Source: an uncultured Gammaproteobacteria bacterium
GTDB lineage: Bacteria; Patescibacteriota; Microgenomatia; UBA8517
Direction: 5' to 3'
NCBI GenBank assembly: GCA_964489145.1
Contig: CAZAXL010000006.1
Span: 1,614-65,613 of the forward strand
DNA: 64,000 nt
Shown: positions 2,452 through 60,245 of the stretch, in pieces
Layout of the letters: each line of letters starts with the position of its first letter
Position numbering within the stretch: position 1 is the first letter of the stretch
Position numbers and translations under genes: made by a program
Notes under the pieces: generated by a model
The model's input: the letters and a program-made list of their open reading frames with translations, nothing else
What the model was told of the DNA's origin: nothing
The model's database searches: none

Positions 2452-3411
2452 ATGAAAACTTGGCAAAGAATCAAAAACGACCCAAACCTGATGGAGAAAT
2501 ATCTTGTTCGGGAAAGGGTTGTTGATACAATCCGTTCCTTTTTCAAAAATCAGGGTTTCCATGAGGTTTTTACGCCAATTTTGGTGCCCATCCCCTCGAT
2601 TGAACCCAACCTTGAAGTGTTTGAGTCAGAATTAAGAACTTCGAAAGGGGAAAAACGCAGAGCCTTTTTAATAATGAGCCCGGAGTTTTCTATTAAAAAA
2701 CTTTTGGCAGGAGGAATCGGAAATTGTTTTGAAATTACAAGATGTTTTAGAAATGAGGAAGAAACAAGCCGTCTCCATAATCCCGAATTTACCATGCTTG
2801 AATGGTATAGGATTAATGCCGGCTATAAGGATATTATGAAAGATTTTGAACACTTATTTTTGAAAATTATCGGTAAAGATAAATTGGAATATCAAGGTGA
2901 AGTTTACGATCTTTCTCTTCCCTGGCCGAAAATTAGGATTTCTGACGCCTTTAAAAAATATGCGGGAAAAGATGTTTTAAAAGTACAGGATGCGGACTTT
3001 TATAAAATCTATTTTAATGAAATAGAACCGGAACTTTTGAAAATGAAAAAGCCGTATTTTATTTACGATTATCCGATTTCTCAAGCATCTTTGTCTAAAC
3101 CCGCTAAAGATCCTAGATTTTCTGAAAGATTTGAGGTTTTTCTTGGCGGGGTTGAATTTGGAAATTGTTTTTCCGAACTGACTGATGCCAAGGAACAGAA
3201 AAAGAGATTTGAGACAGAGAAAAAAGACAGAGAAAGAATGAACAAGACAGAGTACCCGATAGACGAAGATTTAATTGAGGCTTTAAAGGAAGGCATCCCC
3301 GCCGTTTCCGGCATCGCCGTGGGTGTAGATAGGCTCGTCATGCTCGCTGCCGACGCTTCTTCAATTGAGGAAACACTGTTCTTTCCGGGAAAAGAGCTAT
3401 TTGACCTTTAG
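2452..3411 (+). CDS. epmA: EF-P--(R)-beta-lysine ligase (lysyl-tRNA synthetase class II paralog)
   Basis: RCFRNEE, HNPEFTMLEWY, GGVEFGNCFSELTD, GVDRLVMLAA motifs; immediately upstream of efp; TATAAT 10 nt upstream of ATG. Confidence 0.8.
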   Translation: MKTWQRIKNDPNLMEKYLVRERVVDTIRSFFKNQGFHEVFTPILVPIPSIEPNLEVFESELRTSKGEKRRAFLIMSPEFSIKKLLAGGIGNCFEITRCFRNEEETSRLHNPEFTMLEWYRINAGYKDIMKDFEHLFLKIIGKDKLEYQGEVYDLSLPWPKIRISDAFKKYAGKDVLKVQDADFYKIYFNEIEPELLKMKKPYFIYDYPISQASLSKPAKDPRFSERFEVFLGGVEFGNCFSELTDAKEQKKRFETEKKDRERMNKTEYPIDEDLIEALKEGIPAVSGIAVGVDRLVMLAADASSIEETLFFPGKELFDL

Positions 3412-3440
3412 TACCTCCTAAGCTTAGAATACGCATATCC

Positions 3441-4007
3441 ATGAACACAATTAACGCGGGCAACATTACAAAAGGGAGCTTTATTATTTTTAAAGGAGTG
3501 CCTGTTTTTATAACCAAGGCTGAGTTTATGTCTCCCGGAAAAGGCTCTCCCGTTATGAGAATCAAATTCAAAAATGTCCAAACAGGAGCCGCGGGGGAGT
3601 TTACCTATAAAACCGGAGAAAGCGTCGAGGTTGCAGAAATCGAGAAAAAAGAAATGGAATATCTATACCGGGATGGGGAAGAGTTGGTTTTTATGAATCC
3701 GAAATCATATGATCAGGTTAGTATCCCGATGGGTCTTATTGACGACCAGTTTGGCTATTTAACCCCAAATCTTAAATGTTGGATTGTTTGGTATAAAGGT
3801 AGCCCCATTGGCGCAACGCTCCCTTCCCATGTAACTTTAAAAGTGACGGAATCTCCTGATGAGGTTGTCGGGAATAGAATCAATGCTCCCAAAAAGACGG
3901 TGAAACTTGAAACAGGAATCGAAGCTCAAGTTCCATTGTTTATTAAAGTCGGAGAAAAAGTGCAGCTCGATACCACAACCGGAGAATATTTGGGAAGGGT
4001 TAAATAA
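3441..4007 (+). CDS. efp: Elongation factor P
   Basis: AEFMSPGKGSPVMRIKFKNVQTG aligns with the EF-P loop carrying the modified Lys (PGKG). Confidence 0.9.
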   Translation: MNTINAGNITKGSFIIFKGVPVFITKAEFMSPGKGSPVMRIKFKNVQTGAAGEFTYKTGESVEVAEIEKKEMEYLYRDGEELVFMNPKSYDQVSIPMGLIDDQFGYLTPNLKCWIVWYKGSPIGATLPSHVTLKVTESPDEVVGNRINAPKKTVKLETGIEAQVPLFIKVGEKVQLDTTTGEYLGRVK

Positions 4008-8693: not shown

Positions 8694-9653
8694 ATGGATC
8701 TGCCCAAACTAACCGATATTGATGTTGCCGGAAAAAAAGTTCTTCTCAGAGCCGATTTGGATATTGTCGGATCTGAGAATTATAGACTTGATGCAATTAC
8801 ACCTACTTTAGACTTCCTTTTCAATAAGGCCTCAAAAATAACAGTTATCGGACACAAGGGGAGGCCCGGAGGGGTATACGACGAGGGTTTAAGCACAAAA
8901 GGACTGCAGCTGTTTTTCGATAAATGGGGAGCGAAAGTTGAAGAAAATCTAAGGTTTGATCCCGGGGAAGAGGGTAATGACCCTGAATTCGCTAAAAAGT
9001 TGGCGGGTTTGGGTGATGTCTTTATTAATGAGGCATTTGCATCATCTCATCGGGATTCAGCCTCAATCACTTCGCTTCCAAAGTTGCTGCCTCACGCGGC
9101 CGGGATAAGATTTGCTCAAGAAGTAGAGAATCTAAATAAAGTTTTGGAAGACCCCAAAAGGCCGATTTTGTTTATTATCGGTGGGTCAAAAGACGACAAG
9201 GTCGACTATATAAAAAGTCTGGAACCCTTTGCAGACAAAATATTAGTTGGTGGGAGACTCCCCGAGTATTACGGGGATAGGGCTCTTGAAAGCGTAAGGG
9301 AACAAAAAGAAGGAGATAAACTGGTTATCGCAAATCTGGTGCAGGATAAAGAAGATATCACTCTGAACTCGATTGAGAGGTTTGAGAAAGAGATAGGGAA
9401 AGCGAAAACAATAGTTCTTGCCGGACCGATGGGAAAATATGAAGTAGAAGGCCACATGCAGGGAACTGAAAGGATTTTCAGGGCTGTTGCAAATTCTAAT
9501 ACATATAAAGTAACCGGAGGAGGAGATAGTCTTGTTGTTATTGATAAACTCGGCCTTACCCAAAAATTTGACTGGGTATCGGTTGGCGGAGGGGCAATGC
9601 TTGAGTTCCTGTCCAAAAAGACACTACCGGGCATCGAAGCTTTAGAACAGTGA
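8694..9653 (+). CDS. pgk: Phosphoglycerate kinase (unusually short, 319 aa)
   Basis: VLLRADLDI, IGHKGRPGG, TGGGDSLVVIDK, VSVGGGAMLEFLSKKTLPGIEAL. Confidence 0.8.
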   Translation: MDLPKLTDIDVAGKKVLLRADLDIVGSENYRLDAITPTLDFLFNKASKITVIGHKGRPGGVYDEGLSTKGLQLFFDKWGAKVEENLRFDPGEEGNDPEFAKKLAGLGDVFINEAFASSHRDSASITSLPKLLPHAAGIRFAQEVENLNKVLEDPKRPILFIIGGSKDDKVDYIKSLEPFADKILVGGRLPEYYGDRALESVREQKEGDKLVIANLVQDKEDITLNSIERFEKEIGKAKTIVLAGPMGKYEVEGHMQGTERIFRAVANSNTYKVTGGGDSLVVIDKLGLTQKFDWVSVGGGAMLEFLSKKTLPGIEALEQ

Positions 9654-30946: not shown

Positions 30947-31300
30947 ATGGCTGCCACACCTGAGGTTCTAAAACCAAGTCAACCCGAGGTTCAGGAGATA
31001 AGTAAAGAAGCCGAATTTATTGTACCCGAAACATTACGGCAAAGCACGGGTATCCAAGTCGTCCAAAAAAACTTTAAATCGCAAGTTAAAGACGACCATG
31101 GACAGCCTCTAGTCCAAACTCCGCCGACTCAGGTAATTGAAGTAAACCCTCCGGCAGACTTGGAAACACTTACCGACTGGTCAAAAGGTTCCGTAGATTC
31201 CTCTCAAACATGGTTGGGAATGTTTTGGAAGAGAATTTTTCTGAAAGCCTTGTATTTTGGTTGGAAAATAATTGGAAAGGAAAAAGTAAATGCCGCTTGA
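30947..31300 (+). CDS. Hypothetical protein; 11-nt overlap with the downstream ATPase gene
   Basis: No motif; hydrophobic C-terminus. Confidence 0.4.
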   Translation: MAATPEVLKPSQPEVQEISKEAEFIVPETLRQSTGIQVVQKNFKSQVKDDHGQPLVQTPPTQVIEVNPPADLETLTDWSKGSVDSSQTWLGMFWKRIFLKALYFGWKIIGKEKVNAA

Positions 31301-33623
31301 TTCAATAAACTACGCAAATATGCTTTTTATAGCGGTTTTGGCCGTGTTTTTTATTTTTCTTTTGGTTGCTTTCGGGTATTCTGTTTTTATTTATTTTAAA
31401 AACAGGGATCGTGAGAAGAAATCTATAGAGTCGGTGCTTTTACAGGTTGCGGTTCCAAGGCACAACGAAACAAAAATAGACGTAATGGAACAGCTTATTT
31501 CCGGCCTTTATTCAATAAAAAAAGGAGGTTGGAAACAAAAATTTTCAGTGCAACCGGCGATTTCTTTTGAAATAGTTGCCAGACAGGAGGATATCCGTTT
31601 TTATGTTTGGGTTCCCAAGAAGCTTAAGGATTTGGTTGAAAAACAAATAAATGGAGCATATTCGGATGCCGAGGTGATTGAGGTTGATGAATACAATGTT
31701 TTTGACAGTAAAGGTAAAGTTGCCTACAAAACGTTTCAATTGGGGAAAAATAATTTTTATCCCCTTAAAACTTTTAAAGATTTGGCAACGGATCCAATGC
31801 TTGGAATTACCTCGGCTCTCGCAAAAATGGGATCAGGGGATGCTGCCGTGATTCAAATTATTATTTCTCCGGCAGAGAGTGATTGGCAAAAAGAGGGGGG
31901 TCATTTTGTGAGCGACACTAAAAAACAGGAAAGTGATGCCGAAAAAGCAAAGTTTTCGACTTCAGCTAAAACCCTAGAAGCGGTTGAATCAAAAATCAGC
32001 AAACCGGGTTTTGAGACCTCCATAAGAATTATTGCCGTGTCGGAAGATGAAGAAACTGCCAAAGGAACCGTGACGAATATTGCCGGATCTTTTGCCCAGT
32101 TTGCGGGAGAGCTGAACAGTCTTAAAGGAAGAAAGATCTACAGAAAATCTTCATTTATGGAGGACTTTTTGTACAGATACCAGCCAATGTTTAATATTTT
32201 TGGCAATCATGTTTCTATTCTTAATTCCGAAGAGTTGGCTACAATTTTTCATTTTCCAAATAAACAAATTACAACCCCGCACATTCACTGGCTTAATGCT
32301 AAAACGGCCCCTGCTCCTTCCCAGATTCCCACCGAAGGGCTTCATTTGGGAGTTAGTGCTTATAGGGGAATCAAAAGATCGGTTTACATTAGCAATGAAG
32401 ATAGGATGCGTCACATTTATATAATCGGAAAAACGGGTACTGGAAAGTCTGAACTTCTTAAGGATCTTGTTCTGCAGGATATCAGGGAGGGAAAAGGAGT
32501 TTGCTTTATGGATCCGCATGGAGACGCAGTTGAAGATATCCTGAAACTTATTCCGCCGGAGAGGGCTGAGGACGTAATTTATTTTAATCCGAGCGATACG
32601 GAACGCCCTCTGGGAATGAACCTCCTTGAAGCAAGAACCGAGGATGAAAAACATTTTGCGGCTACCTCGGTAATTAATCTTATGTATAAGCTTTTTGATC
32701 CTTATAAAACCGGAATTGTGGGACCAAGGTTTGAGCATGGTATCAGAAATGCCATGCTTACGGTAATGGCAGAGCCGGGAAATACTTTTGTTGAGCTTAT
32801 GAGGGCAATGACCGATTCCAGATATGTTCAGGAACTTTTACCAAGGGTTACCGACCCTATCATTAGAAGATATTGGACCGATCAAATTGCCCAGACTTCA
32901 GACTTTCATAAATCTGAGGTTTTGGATTACACTGTCTCAAAATTTGGCCGCTTTGTTACAAATAAGCTTATAAGAAACATCATTGGACAATCTCAAAGCT
33001 CTTTTGACATGAGGAAAGTTATGGACGAGGGTAAAATTCTCCTAATCAATCTTGCAAAAGGTCCACTGGGGGAGGAAAACAGCAACTTTTTAGGTCTTCT
33101 TCTTGTCCCGAGGATTTTGATGGCAGCGATGAGCAGAGCCAATGTTCCGATGGCCCAAAGACGCGATTTTTACTTTTATGTTGATGAATTCCAGAATTTT
33201 GCCACGCCGGATTTTGCGGTGATTTTATCCGAAGCCAGAAAATACCGGCTTGGACTTTGTGTTGCCAACCAATTTATCGGACAGGTTGAAGAGGAAGTTA
33301 AAAATGCGGTTTTTGGCAATGTTGGAACACTTGTCGCTTTCAGGGTGGGGGTATCCGATGCAAACTATCTCCAGCATGAATTTACACCGACCTTTGGGGA
33401 AGACGACCTTCTTAATGTTGAGCGCTACCATGCTTTCTGTAAAACAATTGTCAACAACGAACCTGTTCCTCCTTTTTCAATGGATATGAGTAAGGATATG
33501 AATAAACAAAAAGCGGCGGAAAGCCAGCGGGTTGCCGAAATAATAAAAGAAATGAGCAGACTTAAATACGGACGTGACGAAAAATTGGTTGAGGCGGAAA
33601 TTCAAAGAAGATCCAACCTTTAG
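31290..33623 (+). CDS. VirD4/TraD/TraG-like type IV coupling-protein-family P-loop ATPase with N-terminal TM segment
   Basis: N-terminal TM helix; HIYIIGKTGTGKSELL (Walker A, TrwB-like); FYFYVDEFQNF (Walker B); C-terminal TraG-D_C-like region. Confidence 0.6.
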   Translation: MPLDSINYANMLFIAVLAVFFIFLLVAFGYSVFIYFKNRDREKKSIESVLLQVAVPRHNETKIDVMEQLISGLYSIKKGGWKQKFSVQPAISFEIVARQEDIRFYVWVPKKLKDLVEKQINGAYSDAEVIEVDEYNVFDSKGKVAYKTFQLGKNNFYPLKTFKDLATDPMLGITSALAKMGSGDAAVIQIIISPAESDWQKEGGHFVSDTKKQESDAEKAKFSTSAKTLEAVESKISKPGFETSIRIIAVSEDEETAKGTVTNIAGSFAQFAGELNSLKGRKIYRKSSFMEDFLYRYQPMFNIFGNHVSILNSEELATIFHFPNKQITTPHIHWLNAKTAPAPSQIPTEGLHLGVSAYRGIKRSVYISNEDRMRHIYIIGKTGTGKSELLKDLVLQDIREGKGVCFMDPHGDAVEDILKLIPPERAEDVIYFNPSDTERPLGMNLLEARTEDEKHFAATSVINLMYKLFDPYKTGIVGPRFEHGIRNAMLTVMAEPGNTFVELMRAMTDSRYVQELLPRVTDPIIRRYWTDQIAQTSDFHKSEVLDYTVSKFGRFVTNKLIRNIIGQSQSSFDMRKVMDEGKILLINLAKGPLGEENSNFLGLLLVPRILMAAMSRANVPMAQRRDFYFYVDEFQNFATPDFAVILSEARKYRLGLCVANQFIGQVEEEVKNAVFGNVGTLVAFRVGVSDANYLQHEFTPTFGEDDLLNVERYHAFCKTIVNNEPVPPFSMDMSKDMNKQKAAESQRVAEIIKEMSRLKYGRDEKLVEAEIQRRSNL

Positions 33624-33703: not shown

Positions 33704-34546
33704 ATGAATATCGGTATTATCGGCAACGGATATGTGGGCGGTGCTACAGGAGCGGGATTTTCCACTAACCCTGATAATAAAATTTTTTGGTACGATAAAT
33801 ATAAGGAAAGCCCCAACACACTAGACGAAGTGATCGAAAAGTCAGAATTCATTTTTATCTGTGTTCCAACCCCCATCTTTTCCAATTATTCAGGAATGGA
33901 TATGAGCATAGTCGAAGAAGTTGTAGGGGGGGTTGCAGAAAAAATCAAAAATTCGGAAAAGATTGTCATCATTAAATCAACTTCGCTTCCCGGAACCACC
34001 AAGAAAATGGCAAAAAAATACCCTCATGTAAATTTTGTCATGAATCCTGAATTTCTAACCCAGAAAAACGCAAATGCTGATTTTCTTAAACCATTTAGGA
34101 CTGTGATTGGCTGTGAGGCGTCTGATGTGGGGGATAGAGTTAAGAAACTCTACGAAACAATTTTACCCGGGGATCAAAAATACATAATTACGGACACAAC
34201 CAGCGCCGAGGTAATTAAATATATGAGTAACCTGATGCTTGCCAGTAAAGTTCTTCTGGCAAATGAATTTTATGAGCTTTCTAAAAAGGTTGGGGCAAAC
34301 TATTTGGATGTACAAAAAGGAGTTGAGTCGGATCCAAGGATAGGAACCCATTTGGGTGTTCCCGGGCCGGACGGCGATGTTGGATTCGGAGGGGCGTGTT
34401 TCCCGAAAGATATGGTGGGAATATTGGGTTTGGCCAAAAAACTTGATGTTGATATGAATGCTCTAAAGACTATTTGGGAGGAAAACCTCAGGATAAGGAA
34501 ACACAGGGATTGGGAAGAAATGCCTCAGGCCTTCAAGAAAAAATAA
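33704..34546 (+). CDS. Nucleotide-sugar dehydrogenase (UDP-glucose/GDP-mannose dehydrogenase family), lacking the C-terminal UDP-binding domain
   Basis: MNIGIIGNGYVGGATGAG Rossmann; GGACFPKD catalytic Cys; ends ~45 aa after the catalytic Cys, 280 aa versus ~390-440 typical. Confidence 0.6.
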   Translation: MNIGIIGNGYVGGATGAGFSTNPDNKIFWYDKYKESPNTLDEVIEKSEFIFICVPTPIFSNYSGMDMSIVEEVVGGVAEKIKNSEKIVIIKSTSLPGTTKKMAKKYPHVNFVMNPEFLTQKNANADFLKPFRTVIGCEASDVGDRVKKLYETILPGDQKYIITDTTSAEVIKYMSNLMLASKVLLANEFYELSKKVGANYLDVQKGVESDPRIGTHLGVPGPDGDVGFGGACFPKDMVGILGLAKKLDVDMNALKTIWEENLRIRKHRDWEEMPQAFKKK

Positions 34547-34645
34547 CCAGCGGGCTCGCATGTCATGACCCTGAGAGTATCAAAGGGGAATTGAATCATG
34601 ACATCGACTTTATGACAGATTCTTCGAACCTGACATGCCAAAACT

Positions 34646-34720
34646 TGGTGGAGCCGGATAGAGTCGAACTATCCTCCGTACTTTATAAGAGTACTGTCCT
34701 AACCGATGAACGACGGCTCC
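34646..34720 (-). tRNA. tRNA-Ile, anticodon UAU (gene TAT), CCA encoded
   Basis: Cloverleaf GGAGCCG/CGGCTCC acceptor, D-arm GTTC-ATCGGTTA-GGAC, anticodon stem GTACT/AGTAC with loop CTTATAA, T-arm GATAG-TTCGACT-CTATC, A73 then CCA. Confidence 0.7.
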
Positions 34721-34835
34721 CCAAGTTTCGTCATAAAAGCGTGTCTTACCATCCGATGGCAAGCCTTGCTTATCATTAAACGACAAGCCCGTTACTATTA
34801 AAGTCTAAGCGTATTATATCAGAAGCAAAGCTAAA

Positions 34836-35699
34836 TTATAGTTCGATGAGGGTTTGTTTTTTGCCCGGGTCAGTAATCTGGGCAAGCTCAAGATAGCGCT
34901 CGGTTGTCGAAAGGCGCTTGTGTCCCGAAACTTGTGAGAGAAGAACGATATCAACTCCGGCCTTAAGATTTTCAATAATAAATGTGGTCCTCAAGTCATT
35001 GACAGAGTAGTTTGGAAGTTCTGCCCTTTGGATATATCTGGCAATTGATGCCCTGATATTTCTAACTGCCAGAGGCTTTCCGTTTTTGCTGATAAATACA
35101 TACGGCGAATCTGCTTTCGGACGGATTGTCAGATAGGCATTTAATACTTCAGAGGCGGGTTTATTGAGAGGAATAGTTCTTTCGGGTTGAGTTGCATAGG
35201 CCTCAATTTTTAAAGAATCCTTCCCGACATTTTCAGTCTTTAAACCGGCGACCTCGGAAATTCTAAGTCCGCTTTGGAGAATTAGCTCAGTGATAGCGGC
35301 GATTCTGGTATCATTTCTGACGACATCCCTGAGGGCTCTATACTCAAGAGGGGAAAGAAACTTGGGAAGCGCACTTTCAATTTTTGGATGTGCTACCGAA
35401 GCTGAAACATCGGACGTAATAATGTTTTCCGAAATCATCCATCTAAAGAAAGTCTTAACAGCGTTAAGTTTGCGGCTAACCGATTTCGGGGTATATTTAT
35501 CGGCCAAAAGAGTATCACGAAAAGAGTCGAGATCATCCGGTCTCACCTGTTCGGGTAAGACTTTTTCGCGTCTGACCAAAAAATCCACTAGCTGAGTCAA
35601 GTCGCTTCGGTAGGCCAAAATAGTTGCCGGTGAGCGCCTTTTCTCGGTTAACGAATTTATAAATTTCGGGAGCAGGTTTTTAATAGGTTCTTGTGCCAT
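34836..35699 (-). CDS. Tyrosine recombinase, XerC/XerD family (~287 aa)
   Basis: N-terminal core-binding domain (ILAYRSDLTQLVDFL), LRISEV, HKRLSTTERY catalytic region; start moved to MAQEPIKN (ATG 35699). Confidence 0.8.
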   Translation of the reverse strand: MAQEPIKNLLPKFINSLTEKRRSPATILAYRSDLTQLVDFLVRREKVLPEQVRPDDLDSFRDTLLADKYTPKSVSRKLNAVKTFFRWMISENIITSDVSASVAHPKIESALPKFLSPLEYRALRDVVRNDTRIAAITELILQSGLRISEVAGLKTENVGKDSLKIEAYATQPERTIPLNKPASEVLNAYLTIRPKADSPYVFISKNGKPLAVRNIRASIARYIQRAELPNYSVNDLRTTFIIENLKAGVDIVLLSQVSGHKRLSTTERYLELAQITDPGKKQTLIEL

Positions 35700-35792
35700 A
35701 ATATTATTCGTAGATGGGCATCTTTTGTCTATTGCTTTGCAATTATAGTGCAAATTTAAAAATAGTCAATGCATTACAGGATATAATTAATT

Positions 35793-36182: not shown

Positions 36183-36200
36183 TTTCTTTTACAAATTTAG

Positions 36201-36274
36201 TGGCTGAGGAGAGACTCGGACTCTCGACCTCGGCGTTATGAATGCCGCGCTCTTACCGACTGAGCTACCCAGCC
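36201..36274 (-). tRNA. tRNA-Met (anticodon CAU), elongator-like (G1-C72 pair); CCA not encoded
   Basis: GGCTGGG-TA-GCTC..GAGC-CGGCA-TTCATAA-CGCCG-..-GAGAG-TCCGAGT-CTCTC-CTCAGCC-A; A31.C39 mismatch; T-loop has C at position 55. Confidence 0.65.
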
Positions 36275-36284
36275 AACAAATTTA

Positions 36285-36326
36285 CGTCATGATTGCCGTG
36301 CTCTAACCAAATGAGCTACGTAGCCC
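36285..36326 (-). pseudogene. 5'-half tRNA-Met-like fragment (acceptor 5' strand, D-arm, anticodon-stem 5' strand, loop ATCATGA) with no 3' half
   Basis: GGGCTACGTAGCTCATTTGGTTAGAGCACGGCAATCATGACG resembles an elongator tRNA-Met 5' half; sits 10 nt upstream of the intact tRNA-Met. Confidence 0.5.
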
Positions 36327-36450: not shown

Positions 36451-36520
36451 TGCGGGGTAGTGTACGGCTGCACGTGAGGCTCATAATCTCACAGGCTGGG
36501 TTCAACTCCCAGCCCCGCAA
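36451..36520 (+). tRNA. tRNA with CAU anticodon and initiator-like acceptor stem (GCGGGG/CCCCGC, A73); Met/fMet candidate
   Basis: Acceptor (T)GCGGGG..CCCCGCA-A as in bacterial tRNA-fMet, but T1-A72 would pair and the anticodon stem lacks three G-C pairs; short D-loop; normal T-loop TTCAACT. Confidence 0.55.
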
Positions 36521-36681
36521 CAAGAGTCAGAATGTAAATTTCAGTTAAATAAAGGCTTTGATCCGGAGGGATGGAACCGGTGAGCTGAGGTCTAAATCAC
36601 CTACAGAGGCGAAACTGTAAAAAGACTGCAACGAGTGTCGGAAACGGAGCTCGTCAAGAATAAGGTTTCCTTATCTTAACG

Positions 36682-48587: not shown

Positions 48588-50279
48588 ATGCAGTTAAACA
48601 AATTCGCAGGCTATCTGGAAAAACTGGAAAAAACTTCAAGTAGACTTGAAATTACCTCAATTTTGACGGATTTGTTCAAAAAAACCGATACAGATGAAAT
48701 TCAAAAAACGGTTTATCTTACTCTCGGAATTTTAGCTCCCAATTATGAAGGAGTTCTTCTTAACTTGGCAGAAAAAATGGTTATTAAAGCAATTGTCTTA
48801 GCCTACAGTGCAGAACCTGGAGCAGTCATCAAGTTGTATAAAGAAAAAGGTGATGTAGGAGACACAGCAGAGTTGTTAGCCACGAGTACTAAACAGTCGG
48901 AGGGACAAAGATTAACCGTCTCTGATATTTACGAAAAGCTTTTGGCAATAGCTAAAGATTCGGGTGGGGGATCACAAGACAGGAAAATTAAGAAAATGGC
49001 CCAAATCCTGACCGAAATAGACCCGCTTTCTGCCCGCTACATTGCCAGAATTCCGGTTGGCAGGCTTAGACTTGGATTTTCGGAAAAAACAATAATTGAT
49101 GCACTAGCCGGTCACGATAAGAAAATTCAGAAAGATATTGAAAAGGCATATAACATAAGACCCGATATTGGTTATATTGCAAAACTGGTTAAAGAGGGAA
49201 ATATAAAGGCTGCAAAACCAGCTGTTGGAGTTCCGATTGTACCCATGTTGGCCCAAAGATTGAATTCAACAACCGAAATGATTAAAAAGATGGGGGAAGT
49301 TTCGGTTGAGCCCAAATTTGACGGTCTCAGGATTTTTATTCACTACAAAAAACCTGATTTCATTAGGATTTTTACAAGAAATATGAATGTGCTTGATCCC
49401 AACATCTTTCCAGAACTGAAAGAAATCAGGAAATATATAAAGGCAGAAAGTGTGGTATTAGATACTGAAGCTGTCGGACTGGACGAAAAAAGGGAGAGGT
49501 TTGTTGATTTCCAAAAAACAATACAAAGGAGAAGAAAACACGATATAGTCAAAAGTTCCGAAAACACCCCGCTTCAATTTCAAGTCTTTGACGTACTTAT
49601 TCTTAATGGAGAAAGCTTTATTAACACTCCTTATACTGAAAGAAGAAAGATTTTGGAAAAAGAAGTGGTTAACGGGAAGCTTTTCAGAGTTGACGAAAAT
49701 ACAATTACAAAAGACCCAGAAGTGATAAAAAACCTACATCAAAAGTATCTCAAGATGGGACTTGAAGGTGTGGTTGTTAAAAAAGCTAATGGTGGATATG
49801 TTAGTGGTAGAACAGGTTGGAATTGGGTGAAAATGAAAGAAGTTGAAGGAAAAAGGGGAAAACTTTCCGACACGGTCGACTGTGTAGTCATGGGATACAC
49901 CACAGGTAAAGGAAAAAGAGCTGGTTTTGGAATGGGCCAGTTTTTGGCGGGAGTAAGAGACGGAGAAACGTTTAAAAGTGTTACAAAAGTCGGAACGGGA
50001 CTATCTGACGAACAATTTAGGGAATTGAAGGCTCGTTTAACCAAAATTCAGGTGAAGGAAAAACCGAAGGAATATGTCGTAAATAAAGACCTGCATCCCG
50101 ATTTTTGGGTTACCCCCTCGGTTGTAATTGAGCTTGCGGCGGACGAAATAACGGTAAGTCCCAAACATACGGCCGGCCTTGCTCTCAGATTTCCACGGCT
50201 AATTCGATTCCGTGACGATAGAAGCGCCATAGATGTAACAACTGTAAACGAACTTCACGATCTTTTGAAGCTACAGTAA
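48588..50279 (+). CDS. ATP-dependent DNA ligase (archaeal/eukaryotic-type)
   Basis: VEPKFDGLR (KxDG adenylation motif), EGVVVKK, C-terminal OB-fold region. Confidence 0.85.
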   Translation: MQLNKFAGYLEKLEKTSSRLEITSILTDLFKKTDTDEIQKTVYLTLGILAPNYEGVLLNLAEKMVIKAIVLAYSAEPGAVIKLYKEKGDVGDTAELLATSTKQSEGQRLTVSDIYEKLLAIAKDSGGGSQDRKIKKMAQILTEIDPLSARYIARIPVGRLRLGFSEKTIIDALAGHDKKIQKDIEKAYNIRPDIGYIAKLVKEGNIKAAKPAVGVPIVPMLAQRLNSTTEMIKKMGEVSVEPKFDGLRIFIHYKKPDFIRIFTRNMNVLDPNIFPELKEIRKYIKAESVVLDTEAVGLDEKRERFVDFQKTIQRRRKHDIVKSSENTPLQFQVFDVLILNGESFINTPYTERRKILEKEVVNGKLFRVDENTITKDPEVIKNLHQKYLKMGLEGVVVKKANGGYVSGRTGWNWVKMKEVEGKRGKLSDTVDCVVMGYTTGKGKRAGFGMGQFLAGVRDGETFKSVTKVGTGLSDEQFRELKARLTKIQVKEKPKEYVVNKDLHPDFWVTPSVVIELAADEITVSPKHTAGLALRFPRLIRFRDDRSAIDVTTVNELHDLLKLQ

Positions 50280-59339: not shown

Positions 59340-59358
59340 TCATGGGGCACCTTGGATA

Positions 59359-59394
59359 AATGGCAAGATATTCTTACCATTGAGCTAAGGGCCC
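59359..59394 (-). other. tRNA-Lys 5' fragment (20-22 nt identical to the tRNA-Lys 5' end) fused to a 9-bp hairpin (AATGGTAAG/CTTGCCATT), ~20 nt upstream of tRNA-Lys
   Basis: GGGCCCTTAGCTCAATGGTA-AGAATATCTTGCCATT in tRNA orientation. Confidence 0.6.
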
Positions 59395-60184: not shown

Positions 60185-60219
60185 TGGGGAGTCGTCTAAT
60201 GGTAAGGAAACCTTGCCAT
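60185..60219 (+). other. tRNA-Gln 5' fragment (20 nt identical to the tRNA-Gln 5' end) fused to a hairpin (AATGGTAAG..CTTGCCAT), 27 nt upstream of tRNA-Gln
   Basis: TGGGGAGTCGTCTAATGGTA-AGGAAACCTTGCCAT; tail homologous to the Lys fragment tail. Confidence 0.6.
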
Positions 60220-60245
60220 CAGCCTTCCAGTTTTAGTTTTAATAT

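Follow-up and report, generated by a model that had tools for sequence, protein, structure and literature searches.

A tRNA-Ile(UAU) gene on a Candidatus Woesebacteria chromosome

The stretch of DNA analysed here (64,000 nucleotides, hereafter the window) carries a gene for an isoleucine tRNA that bears UAU as its anticodon, tRNA-Ile(UAU), at 34646..34720 on the minus strand; directly upstream lies a tyrosine recombinase gene, and beyond it two tRNA genes with a CAU anticodon. The window is part of a chromosome of Candidatus Woesebacteria (Microgenomates, candidate phyla radiation (CPR)/Patescibacteria), ultra-small bacteria that are uncultured. This assignment is based on its tryptophanyl-tRNA synthetase (TrpRS), whose relatives share between 97% and 57% identity with it and come from organisms labelled Candidatus Woesebacteria, Microgenomates or Patescibacteria. 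Contigs with an identical TrpRS are present in metagenome assemblies of the European Nucleotide Archive (ENA) and JGI. The genes of the window lie mainly on the plus strand, and their content is that of a small-genome bacterium, e.g., glycolytic enzymes, two class A penicillin-binding proteins, ribonucleotide reductase, TrpRS, FtsH, EpmA with elongation factor P (EF-P), and a DUF8128/TrwB-like ATPase.

The tRNA-Ile(UAU) gene is a genuine tRNA gene, composed of 72 nucleotides (nt) and an encoded CCA (34646-34648), and is recovered by ARAGORN, Rfam, direct reading and covariation alike. ARAGORN reports a 75-nt tRNA-Ile with anticodon (tat) and puts the anticodon at tRNA position 34, i.e., at 34685..34687 (minus strand) within the loop CUUAUAA (34683-34689). 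The match to the Rfam tRNA model RF00005 (34649-34720) reaches 55.4 bits, the gathering score being 29, with E = 3.4e-9 when the whole window is searched; it covers the full-length model and has no non-canonical pairs flagged. On the minus strand, the sequence reads GGAGCCG-UC-GUUC-AUCGGUUA-GGAC-A-GUACU-CUUAUAA-AGUAC-GGAG-GAUAG-UUCGACU-CUAUC-CGGCUCC-A-CCA. The acceptor stem consists of seven Watson-Crick pairs, the anticodon and T stems of five each, likewise all Watson-Crick, and the D stem of four pairs, one of them the wobble pair U12-G23. U8, G18G19, U33 in a 7-nt anticodon loop, A37, A38, a T-loop UUCGA (tRNA consensus UUCRA) and A73 are all in place.

An earlier reading of the bare sequence (the sequence-only reading) had described a clean cloverleaf with G18G19, a TTCGA T-loop, A37 and an encoded CCA, and a loop CTTATAA giving a UAU anticodon. 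The direct reading and the RF00005 score bear out the former, and ARAGORN and Rfam the latter; only the strand has to be corrected, as the gene lies on the minus strand. The Rfam alignment sets UAU inside the loop CUUAUAA, so the register is unambiguous, and neither ARAGORN nor Rfam offers an alternative stem register. Position 34 is thus encoded as T (34687, minus strand) and not as the C34 of the lysidine pathway, in which TilS converts tRNA-Ile2(CAU). Because T rather than C is encoded there, no lysidine can form on this tRNA.

Among the six tRNA genes of the window, only that for tRNA-Ile(UAU) encodes its 3' CCA, which is absent from the Met, fMet, Lys, Glu and Gln genes; the tRNA-Gln of relatives does encode CCA. 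As most of the window tRNAs are without an encoded CCA, a CCA-adding enzyme must exist in the organism.

Conservation of the gene across the lineage

The comparison set consisted of 40 related trpS loci (designated by L and a number), which were scanned with ARAGORN. A tRNA-Ile(tat) gene was found 1.5-8 kb upstream of trpS in 15 of the 40, namely, L007, L010-L016, L019, L021, L024, L033, L038, L039 and L040, and in all eight loci that have a TrpRS at least 76% identical together with enough upstream sequence. The tRNA of L013 is identical to that of L007, so the alignment comprised 15 sequences, i.e., 14 from relatives and the window gene. The CUUAUAA loop and A73 are invariant in 15/15 sequences, and with them the isoleucine identity elements A35, U36, A37 (the site of N6-threonylcarbamoyladenosine, t6A), A38 and the discriminator A73. 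The stems, on the other hand, vary in a coordinated manner: 16 of the 20 stem pairs show compensatory changes on both sides, with a covariation term of -6.8 kcal/mol. This combination of an invariant loop and covarying stems is the hallmark of long-lasting selection for a tRNA with specifically a UAU anticodon, and the gene appears to have been inherited at a conserved, syntenic position across the Woesebacteria lineage.

Usage and meaning of AUA

In 62 open reading frames (ORFs) of the window, AUA accounts for 375 of 18,320 codons, i.e., 20.5 per 1000 and 26% of the isoleucine codons, and is commoner than AUC or AUG. An AUA usage above 10 per 1000 is classed as high, with that of Escherichia coli being 4.9 (PMC12514573). 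The sequence-only reading was right to call AUA frequent; the genome, which it described as AT-rich, is only moderately so, at about 41% G+C. To establish the meaning of the codon, 18 window proteins were aligned to the related loci and the residues facing each codon were tallied. AUA faces Ile in 54% of cases, Val in 19%, Leu in 11% and Met in 2.7%, and the corresponding values for AUU are 58%, 16%, 12% and 2.8%; the substitution profile of AUA is that of AUU and AUC. For AUG, the facing residue is Met in 58% of cases. When codons rather than residues are compared, relatives mostly have AUU (29%), AUA (16%) and AUC (10%) opposite AUA. By these alignments, the genetic code is standard and AUA is read as ordinary isoleucine, so that a dedicated decoder is needed; as AUA makes up a quarter of the isoleucine codons, the decoding load on tRNA-Ile(UAU) would be heavy.

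Proposed decoding of AUA

How AUA (Ile) is told apart from AUG (Met) is a long-standing question in the study of the genetic code. Bacteria are held to achieve this almost universally by means of TilS and lysidine, and TilS has even been proposed as an antibiotic target. On the evidence of its structure and conservation, the gene described here very probably encodes a functional tRNA-Ile(UAU) that decodes AUA. The interpretation preferred here, to which we assign a probability of roughly 0.75, goes further: tRNA-Ile(UAU) would be a functional minor tRNA-Ile that serves as the principal and probably the only decoder of AUA, in place of tRNA-Ile2(CAU) and TilS. The strictest form of this proposal, in which it is the sole AUA decoder and TilS is absent, is held at somewhat better than even odds.

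In the proposed mechanism, AUA would be read through pairing of its A with U34 of tRNA-Ile(UAU). Judging from Mycoplasma mobile and a Bacillus subtilis suppressor strain, both compared below, this would require an isoleucyl-tRNA synthetase (IleRS) that accepts U34 and uses A35, U36, A37 (as t6A), A38 and A73 as identity elements; the invariance of A37, A38 and A73 would fit recognition by IleRS and formation of t6A37. U34 would likewise have to be unmodified, or modified so as to pair poorly with G, and competition by tRNA-Met and/or discrimination by the ribosome would have to prevent the misreading of AUG.

Neighbouring CAU tRNAs

The sequence-only reading had counted three CAU tRNAs nearby and considered that both systems may coexist. 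Two of the three are intact genes, one for an elongator tRNA-Met(CAU)-like tRNA (36200..36274, minus strand; ARAGORN; Rfam 61.8 bits) and one for the initiator tRNA-fMet(CAU) (36451..36521, plus strand; ARAGORN; Rfam 49.3 bits), while the third proved to be only a 42-nt 5'-half fragment of another tRNA-Met allele (36285..36326, minus strand). With an initiator, an elongator-Met-like gene and a truncated 5' half, these neighbours lend the idea of coexistence no support.

The elongator-like tRNA shares 67% identity with E. coli metT versus 60% with ileY. Members of its family are mostly closest to E. coli tRNA-Met (0.59-0.75 identity versus 0.54-0.65 to tRNA-Ile2), but 5 of 28 are marginally closer to the reference for the initiator or for tRNA-Ile2. 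The family is variable at positions 32 and 38, with three members having U38, unlike any tRNA-Ile, and one member has the exact acceptor stem of E. coli tRNA-Met. The initiator family is nearly invariant across relatives and is 54-64% identical to E. coli metZ (46% for the divergent L017) and at most 49% identical to other reference tRNAs. The acceptor stem of the window initiator, UGCGGGG/CCCCGCA-A, matches that of metZ (family pattern xGCGGGG/CCCCGC-A), and the initiators of outgroup relatives have the diagnostic C1xA72 mismatch where those of Woesebacteria have U1-A72. When the CAU tRNAs of the window and the 40 loci were sorted by identity to E. coli references, no third class of the tRNA-Ile2 type was found; as far as the modest margins of this classification allow, none of the nearby CAU tRNAs looks like tRNA-Ile2(CAU).

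The window initiator is unconventional in several respects, having U1-A72 rather than C1xA72, U11-A24, and an anticodon stem of A29-U41/G30-C40/G31-U39 rather than three G-C pairs. Initiator stems with AU/GC/GU pairs occur in some Mycoplasma and Rhizobium species. The 42-nt fragment, as read directly, runs through a CAT anticodon loop and then stops; it is called as a tRNA by neither ARAGORN nor Rfam, and by BLAST it matches the tRNA-Met genes of L011 and L012. It lies 10 nt upstream of the intact tRNA-Met gene, which has the 9-nt sequence TAAATTTGT repeated on both of its sides. Similar 5' remnants precede tRNA-Met in L039 (~8825-8872) and the initiator in L033 (~9449-9564), and turnover of tRNA genes by replacement seems to be common in the clade.

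TilS, IleRS and the possibility of a redundant decoder

Pfam was run on ~46 window ORFs, and every fetched locus and the flanks of the window were scanned for PP-loop motifs. The flanks (loci L057 and L060) extend ~6 kb beyond the right and ~7.5 kb beyond the left window end, so that, with the window, ~80 kb of a genome of ~0.8 Mb was covered, the relatives being represented by 21-kb slices. Neither the window nor the flanks nor the related loci (~675 kb in all) yielded an ORF with the TilS domain (PF01171) or the PP-loop (SGGxDS). When a set of 5.8 billion proteins was queried with E. coli TilS, the 120 matches listed were all from Enterobacteria, CPR proteins being out of reach of this query. 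Neither was ileS found in the window, flanks or fetched loci, where the large class I synthetases are the leucyl enzyme (LeuRS) and TrpRS (a fusion). In many bacteria, tilS is located beside ftsH; in all relatives examined here, ftsH is preceded by trpS and a small tRNA-binding-domain gene. Taken together, a lineage lacking TilS is put at slightly better than an even chance. For the wider proposal, that Woesebacteria and perhaps much of Microgenomates are without TilS clade-wide, having lost it or never had it, and decode AUA solely by tRNA-Ile(UAU), the odds are about even.

The best-surviving alternative holds that tRNA-Ile(UAU) is functional but redundant, working beside a conventional tilS and tRNA-Ile2(CAU) located elsewhere in the genome, either as in Lactobacillus casei and Lactobacillus plantarum or as an evolutionary 'transition state'. 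Several points weigh in its favour or against the preferred interpretation. Coexistence of the two systems is documented in several bacteria (PMC3575796), TilS has been described as highly conserved across bacteria (PMC12514573), and tilS and tRNA-Ile2(CAU) could sit in the remaining ~90% of the genome, the inspected sequence being confined to the portion given above. The lack of tilS next to ftsH in the 40 loci is only suggestive, and comparison with E. coli references is a crude way to sort the CAU tRNAs, with margins of 0.05-0.15. Furthermore, the 15 tRNA-Ile(UAU) sequences do not conserve the pairs C4-G69, U12-A23 and C29-G41, which contribute to isoleucine identity in E. coli. Redundancy is nevertheless considered unlikely. 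Neither a TilS-like ORF nor a third class of CAU tRNA is seen in the inspected sequence, the UAU tRNA has stayed intact with an invariant loop across a divergence as deep as 57% TrpRS identity, it has been retained through a gene replacement (see below), and the high usage of AUA places a large load on it.

Local history of the locus

The surroundings of the gene indicate that the present allele is not the original one. The closest relative, L007, has flanks 93% identical to those of the window, yet its tRNA-Ile(UAU) differs throughout the stems; the window allele is nearest to those of L010 and L014, at ~80%. Pieces of an ancestral allele of the L007/L013 type, all on the minus strand, flank the intact gene on either side. 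Comparison with L007 and L013, together with local alignment, reveals a 5' remnant of ancestral positions 1-30 at 34762..34790, of which the first 17 nt, GGGCTTGTCGTTTAATG, are identical, and a 3' remnant of positions 50-70 (T arm and 3' acceptor strand) at 34552..34571. Local alignment further identifies a second partial copy of positions 15-35 (D arm plus the anticodon stem's 5' strand) at 34733..34752, and a third, degenerate copy of positions 10-60 at 34587..34644, a pseudogene in which the anticodon is mutated to CAT and for which there is neither an ARAGORN call nor an Rfam match at E <= 1. The rearranged stretch measures only ~220 bp. One tRNA-Ile(UAU) gene has thus replaced another at the same site, the window gene being a diverged replacement copy. 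An intact copy of tRNA-Ile(UAU) is kept in every genome examined, and the survival of an intact copy through the break-up of the resident allele is consistent with selection for function. A conserved -10-like box, TATAAT (34813..34818, minus strand), occupies invariant columns (T23-T28) when the window is aligned with L007 and L013. It probably served the ancestral allele as a promoter and probably still drives its successor through read-through; a consensus scan found no -35 box paired with it.

The recombinase gene directly upstream (34836..35753, minus strand; PF00589 and PF02899) is Xer-like, with NCBIfam matches of the XerC/XerD/XerA type that are all under the curated cut-offs, and it is syntenic in L007 and L010-L014. 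These two properties rule it out as the integrase of a mobile element, so that the locus is read as ordinary chromosomal context and not as an integrated element.

This bears on a second alternative, namely, that the tRNA is a recently acquired foreign or mobile-element gene, brought in by an element that integrated beside the recombinase and accessory rather than belonging to core translation. It would account for the singular encoded CCA, for the strong unlikeness to the L007 allele despite the 93% identity of the flanks, and for the position amid fragments of an older allele next to a tyrosine recombinase gene. The gene that was replaced, however, already encoded a tRNA-Ile(UAU) in that very place, and across 15 genomes this function is an ancestral property of the locus; the neighbouring recombinase is syntenic as just described, and there is no insertion the size of an element. 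Conserved synteny refutes foreign origin as a full explanation, and as such it is regarded as improbable. A third alternative, that the sequence is a non-functional tRNA-like pseudogene, or has another identity with AUA reassigned (e.g., to Met), draws on the litter of tRNA fragments and the active decay at the locus, but can be dismissed as highly improbable in view of the complete cloverleaf with all standard tertiary-interaction nucleotides and its Rfam score, the strong covariation and invariant anticodon loop of the homologues, and the alignment of AUA with Ile, Val and Leu, reassignment being ruled out by a Met share that matches that of AUU.

Other tRNA copies and genes nearby

Partial tRNA copies also occur elsewhere in the window. 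Ahead of the complete tRNA-Lys(UUU) gene lie a 22-nt 5' copy (59373-59394) and a 33-nt spacer (together 59340-59394, minus strand), and ahead of the complete tRNA-Gln(UUG) gene a 23-nt 5' copy (60185-60207) and a 38-nt spacer (together 60185-60245, plus strand). Both copies end in the D-loop and are followed by an inverted repeat (AATGGTAAG...CTTGCCAT) that forms a 9-bp hairpin; the CTTGCCAT motif is also found after the tRNA-Ile remnant, at 34756-34763. The Lys insertion is common to L063 and L064, whose neighbouring adenylate-kinase-like protein is 89% identical, and absent from L066-L068, and the Gln copy is found in the window strain only. Conserved leader elements are ruled out by this absence from slightly more distant relatives; the copies look like recent fold-back or template-switch duplications, or like footprints of a process that targets tRNA genes. 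In L065 (~3840-3890), one metagenome contig carries a tRNA-Lys with an internal deletion (…AATGGTAGAGC|CCCAGAGGGCTCAC), which is either a population variant or an assembly artefact.

Several protein-coding and rRNA genes deserve mention. The ORF at 33704-34546 (plus strand) encodes a nucleotide-sugar dehydrogenase homologue of only 280 amino acids, in which the N-terminal domain starts ~68 profile positions late and the C-terminal domain is missing altogether; since relatives have a protein of equal length, a fresh pseudogene can be ruled out. A 777-amino-acid membrane ATPase with DUF8128 and a TrwB/TraG-like coupling-protein domain (31290-33623, plus strand) fits a type IV secretion or competence-like machinery of Patescibacteria. 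At 48588-50279 (plus strand), this bacterial chromosome encodes an ATP-dependent DNA ligase that is of the archaeal/eukaryotic type and comprises N, adenylation and OB domains, and EpmA (the EF-P lysine aminoacylase, above the NCBIfam cut-off) directly upstream of EF-P at 2452-4007 (plus strand), from which it follows that beta-lysylation of EF-P is retained in this reduced CPR genome. In the right flank, ~3-6 kb past the window end, a 16S rRNA gene with a LAGLIDADG ORF inside or just downstream (L057, 13417-16316) constitutes the rRNA-intron arrangement typical of CPR bacteria. In the left flank, ~7-9 kb before the window begins, a gene for a SMODS nucleotidyltransferase and an adjacent ORF beside an N6/N4 DNA methylase (L060, 511-2227) may be a defence locus resembling cyclic oligonucleotide-based antiphage signalling systems (CBASS).

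Significance and comparison with known systems

With a conserved, syntenic tRNA-Ile(UAU) in a clade that is abundant, uncultured and a heavy user of AUA, this alternative to lysidine is seen to extend further than was known. For annotators, it provides a reason not to expect tRNA-Ile2(CAU) or tilS when the completeness of these genomes is judged, and it points to adaptations of IleRS and the ribosome in CPR bacteria. If TilS is absent clade-wide, no other bacterial group known to do without it would come near this one in size or depth, and the clade would offer a natural test of the proposal that a tRNA-Ile with a UAU anticodon was the ancestral AUA decoder (PMC3575796).

The sequence-only reading had considered tRNA-Ile(UAU) to be uncommon in bacteria and to go with a TilS that is lost or redundant, in agreement with the literature (PMC3575796; PMC8450103). 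In 2013, nine tilS-less species, others with both systems, and 371 distinct metagenomic tDNA-Ile(TAT) sequences were listed (PMC3575796); tRNADB-CE records tRNA-Ile(UAU) in nineteen species (PMC4013482), and the survey with tRNAscan-SE 2.0 found it in seventeen genomes, naming the class tRNA-Ile3(UAU) (PMC8450103). In papers of 2025-2026 it still figures as an infrequent exception, with no more than a few dozen genomes to its name, and a 2026 preprint still speaks of 'rare cases' (10.64898/2026.02.03.703510). In the open-access literature, no paper was found that joins lysidine with the candidate phyla radiation, and none of those pairing tilS with Patescibacteria concerns the enzyme.

The closest parallel is M. 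mobile, in which U34 is unmodified, Arg865 of IleRS replaces the Trp that stacks on the wobble base, and the ribosome binds tRNA-Ile(UAU) on AUA and not on AUG (PMC3575796). Both organisms combine a dedicated minor tRNA-Ile with an encoded UAU, A37 and A38, a reduced genome and frequent AUA, and no tilS was detected here in the available sequence (window, flanks and related loci). They differ in that the state of U34, the role of Arg865 and the rejection of AUG were shown experimentally in M. mobile, whereas for the present case comparable features are proposed by analogy, and in that M. mobile is a single Tenericutes species whose relatives keep tilS, whereas here the tRNA is shared by a deep clade. 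Occurrence at the level of a clade is known from Bifidobacterium and Neorickettsia, where tRNA-Ile(UAU) replaces tRNA-Ile2(CAU) and is accompanied by a eukaryote-type IleRS (PMC3575796; the seventeen genomes of PMC8450103). Those lineages are, however, defined by a horizontally acquired type-2 IleRS, and no ileS lies in the Woesebacteria sequence examined.

With the canonical pathway, in which CAU is converted to lysidine-AU, the present system shares an AUA-specific minor tRNA-Ile with A37, A38 and A73, but T34 is encoded and neither TilS nor a CAU tRNA of the Ile2 type was seen in the inspected sequence. Lactobacillus casei, Lactobacillus plantarum, Cyanothece PCC 7424 and Ferrimonas balearica possess both tilS and tRNA-Ile(UAU) (PMC3575796); they resemble Woesebacteria in encoding a bacterial tRNA-Ile(UAU) and differ in that their tilS is demonstrable, with no positive sign of it in the sequence inspected here. 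In B. subtilis, a suppressor of tilS deletion, tRNA-Ile1(G34U), has an unmodified U34 that binds AUA strongly and AUG weakly and permits normal growth (PMC3919564), which shows that a bacterium can live by this strategy with no special machinery; that tRNA is a laboratory mutant of the major tRNA-Ile, whereas the gene described here is separate and naturally conserved. Archaea such as Nanoarchaeum equitans, likewise an ultra-small symbiont, and Korarchaeum, with tRNA-Ile(UAU), and eukaryotes, with tRNA-Ile(pseudoU-A-pseudoU), also use a U-type wobble base and not a modified C for AUA; these are other domains with other IleRS and modification enzymes, whereas the window gene, its initiator tRNA and its context are bacterial. 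The mechanism is therefore a known one, and what is new is its occurrence at the level of a lineage, in Woesebacteria, and the breadth of the clade that carries it.

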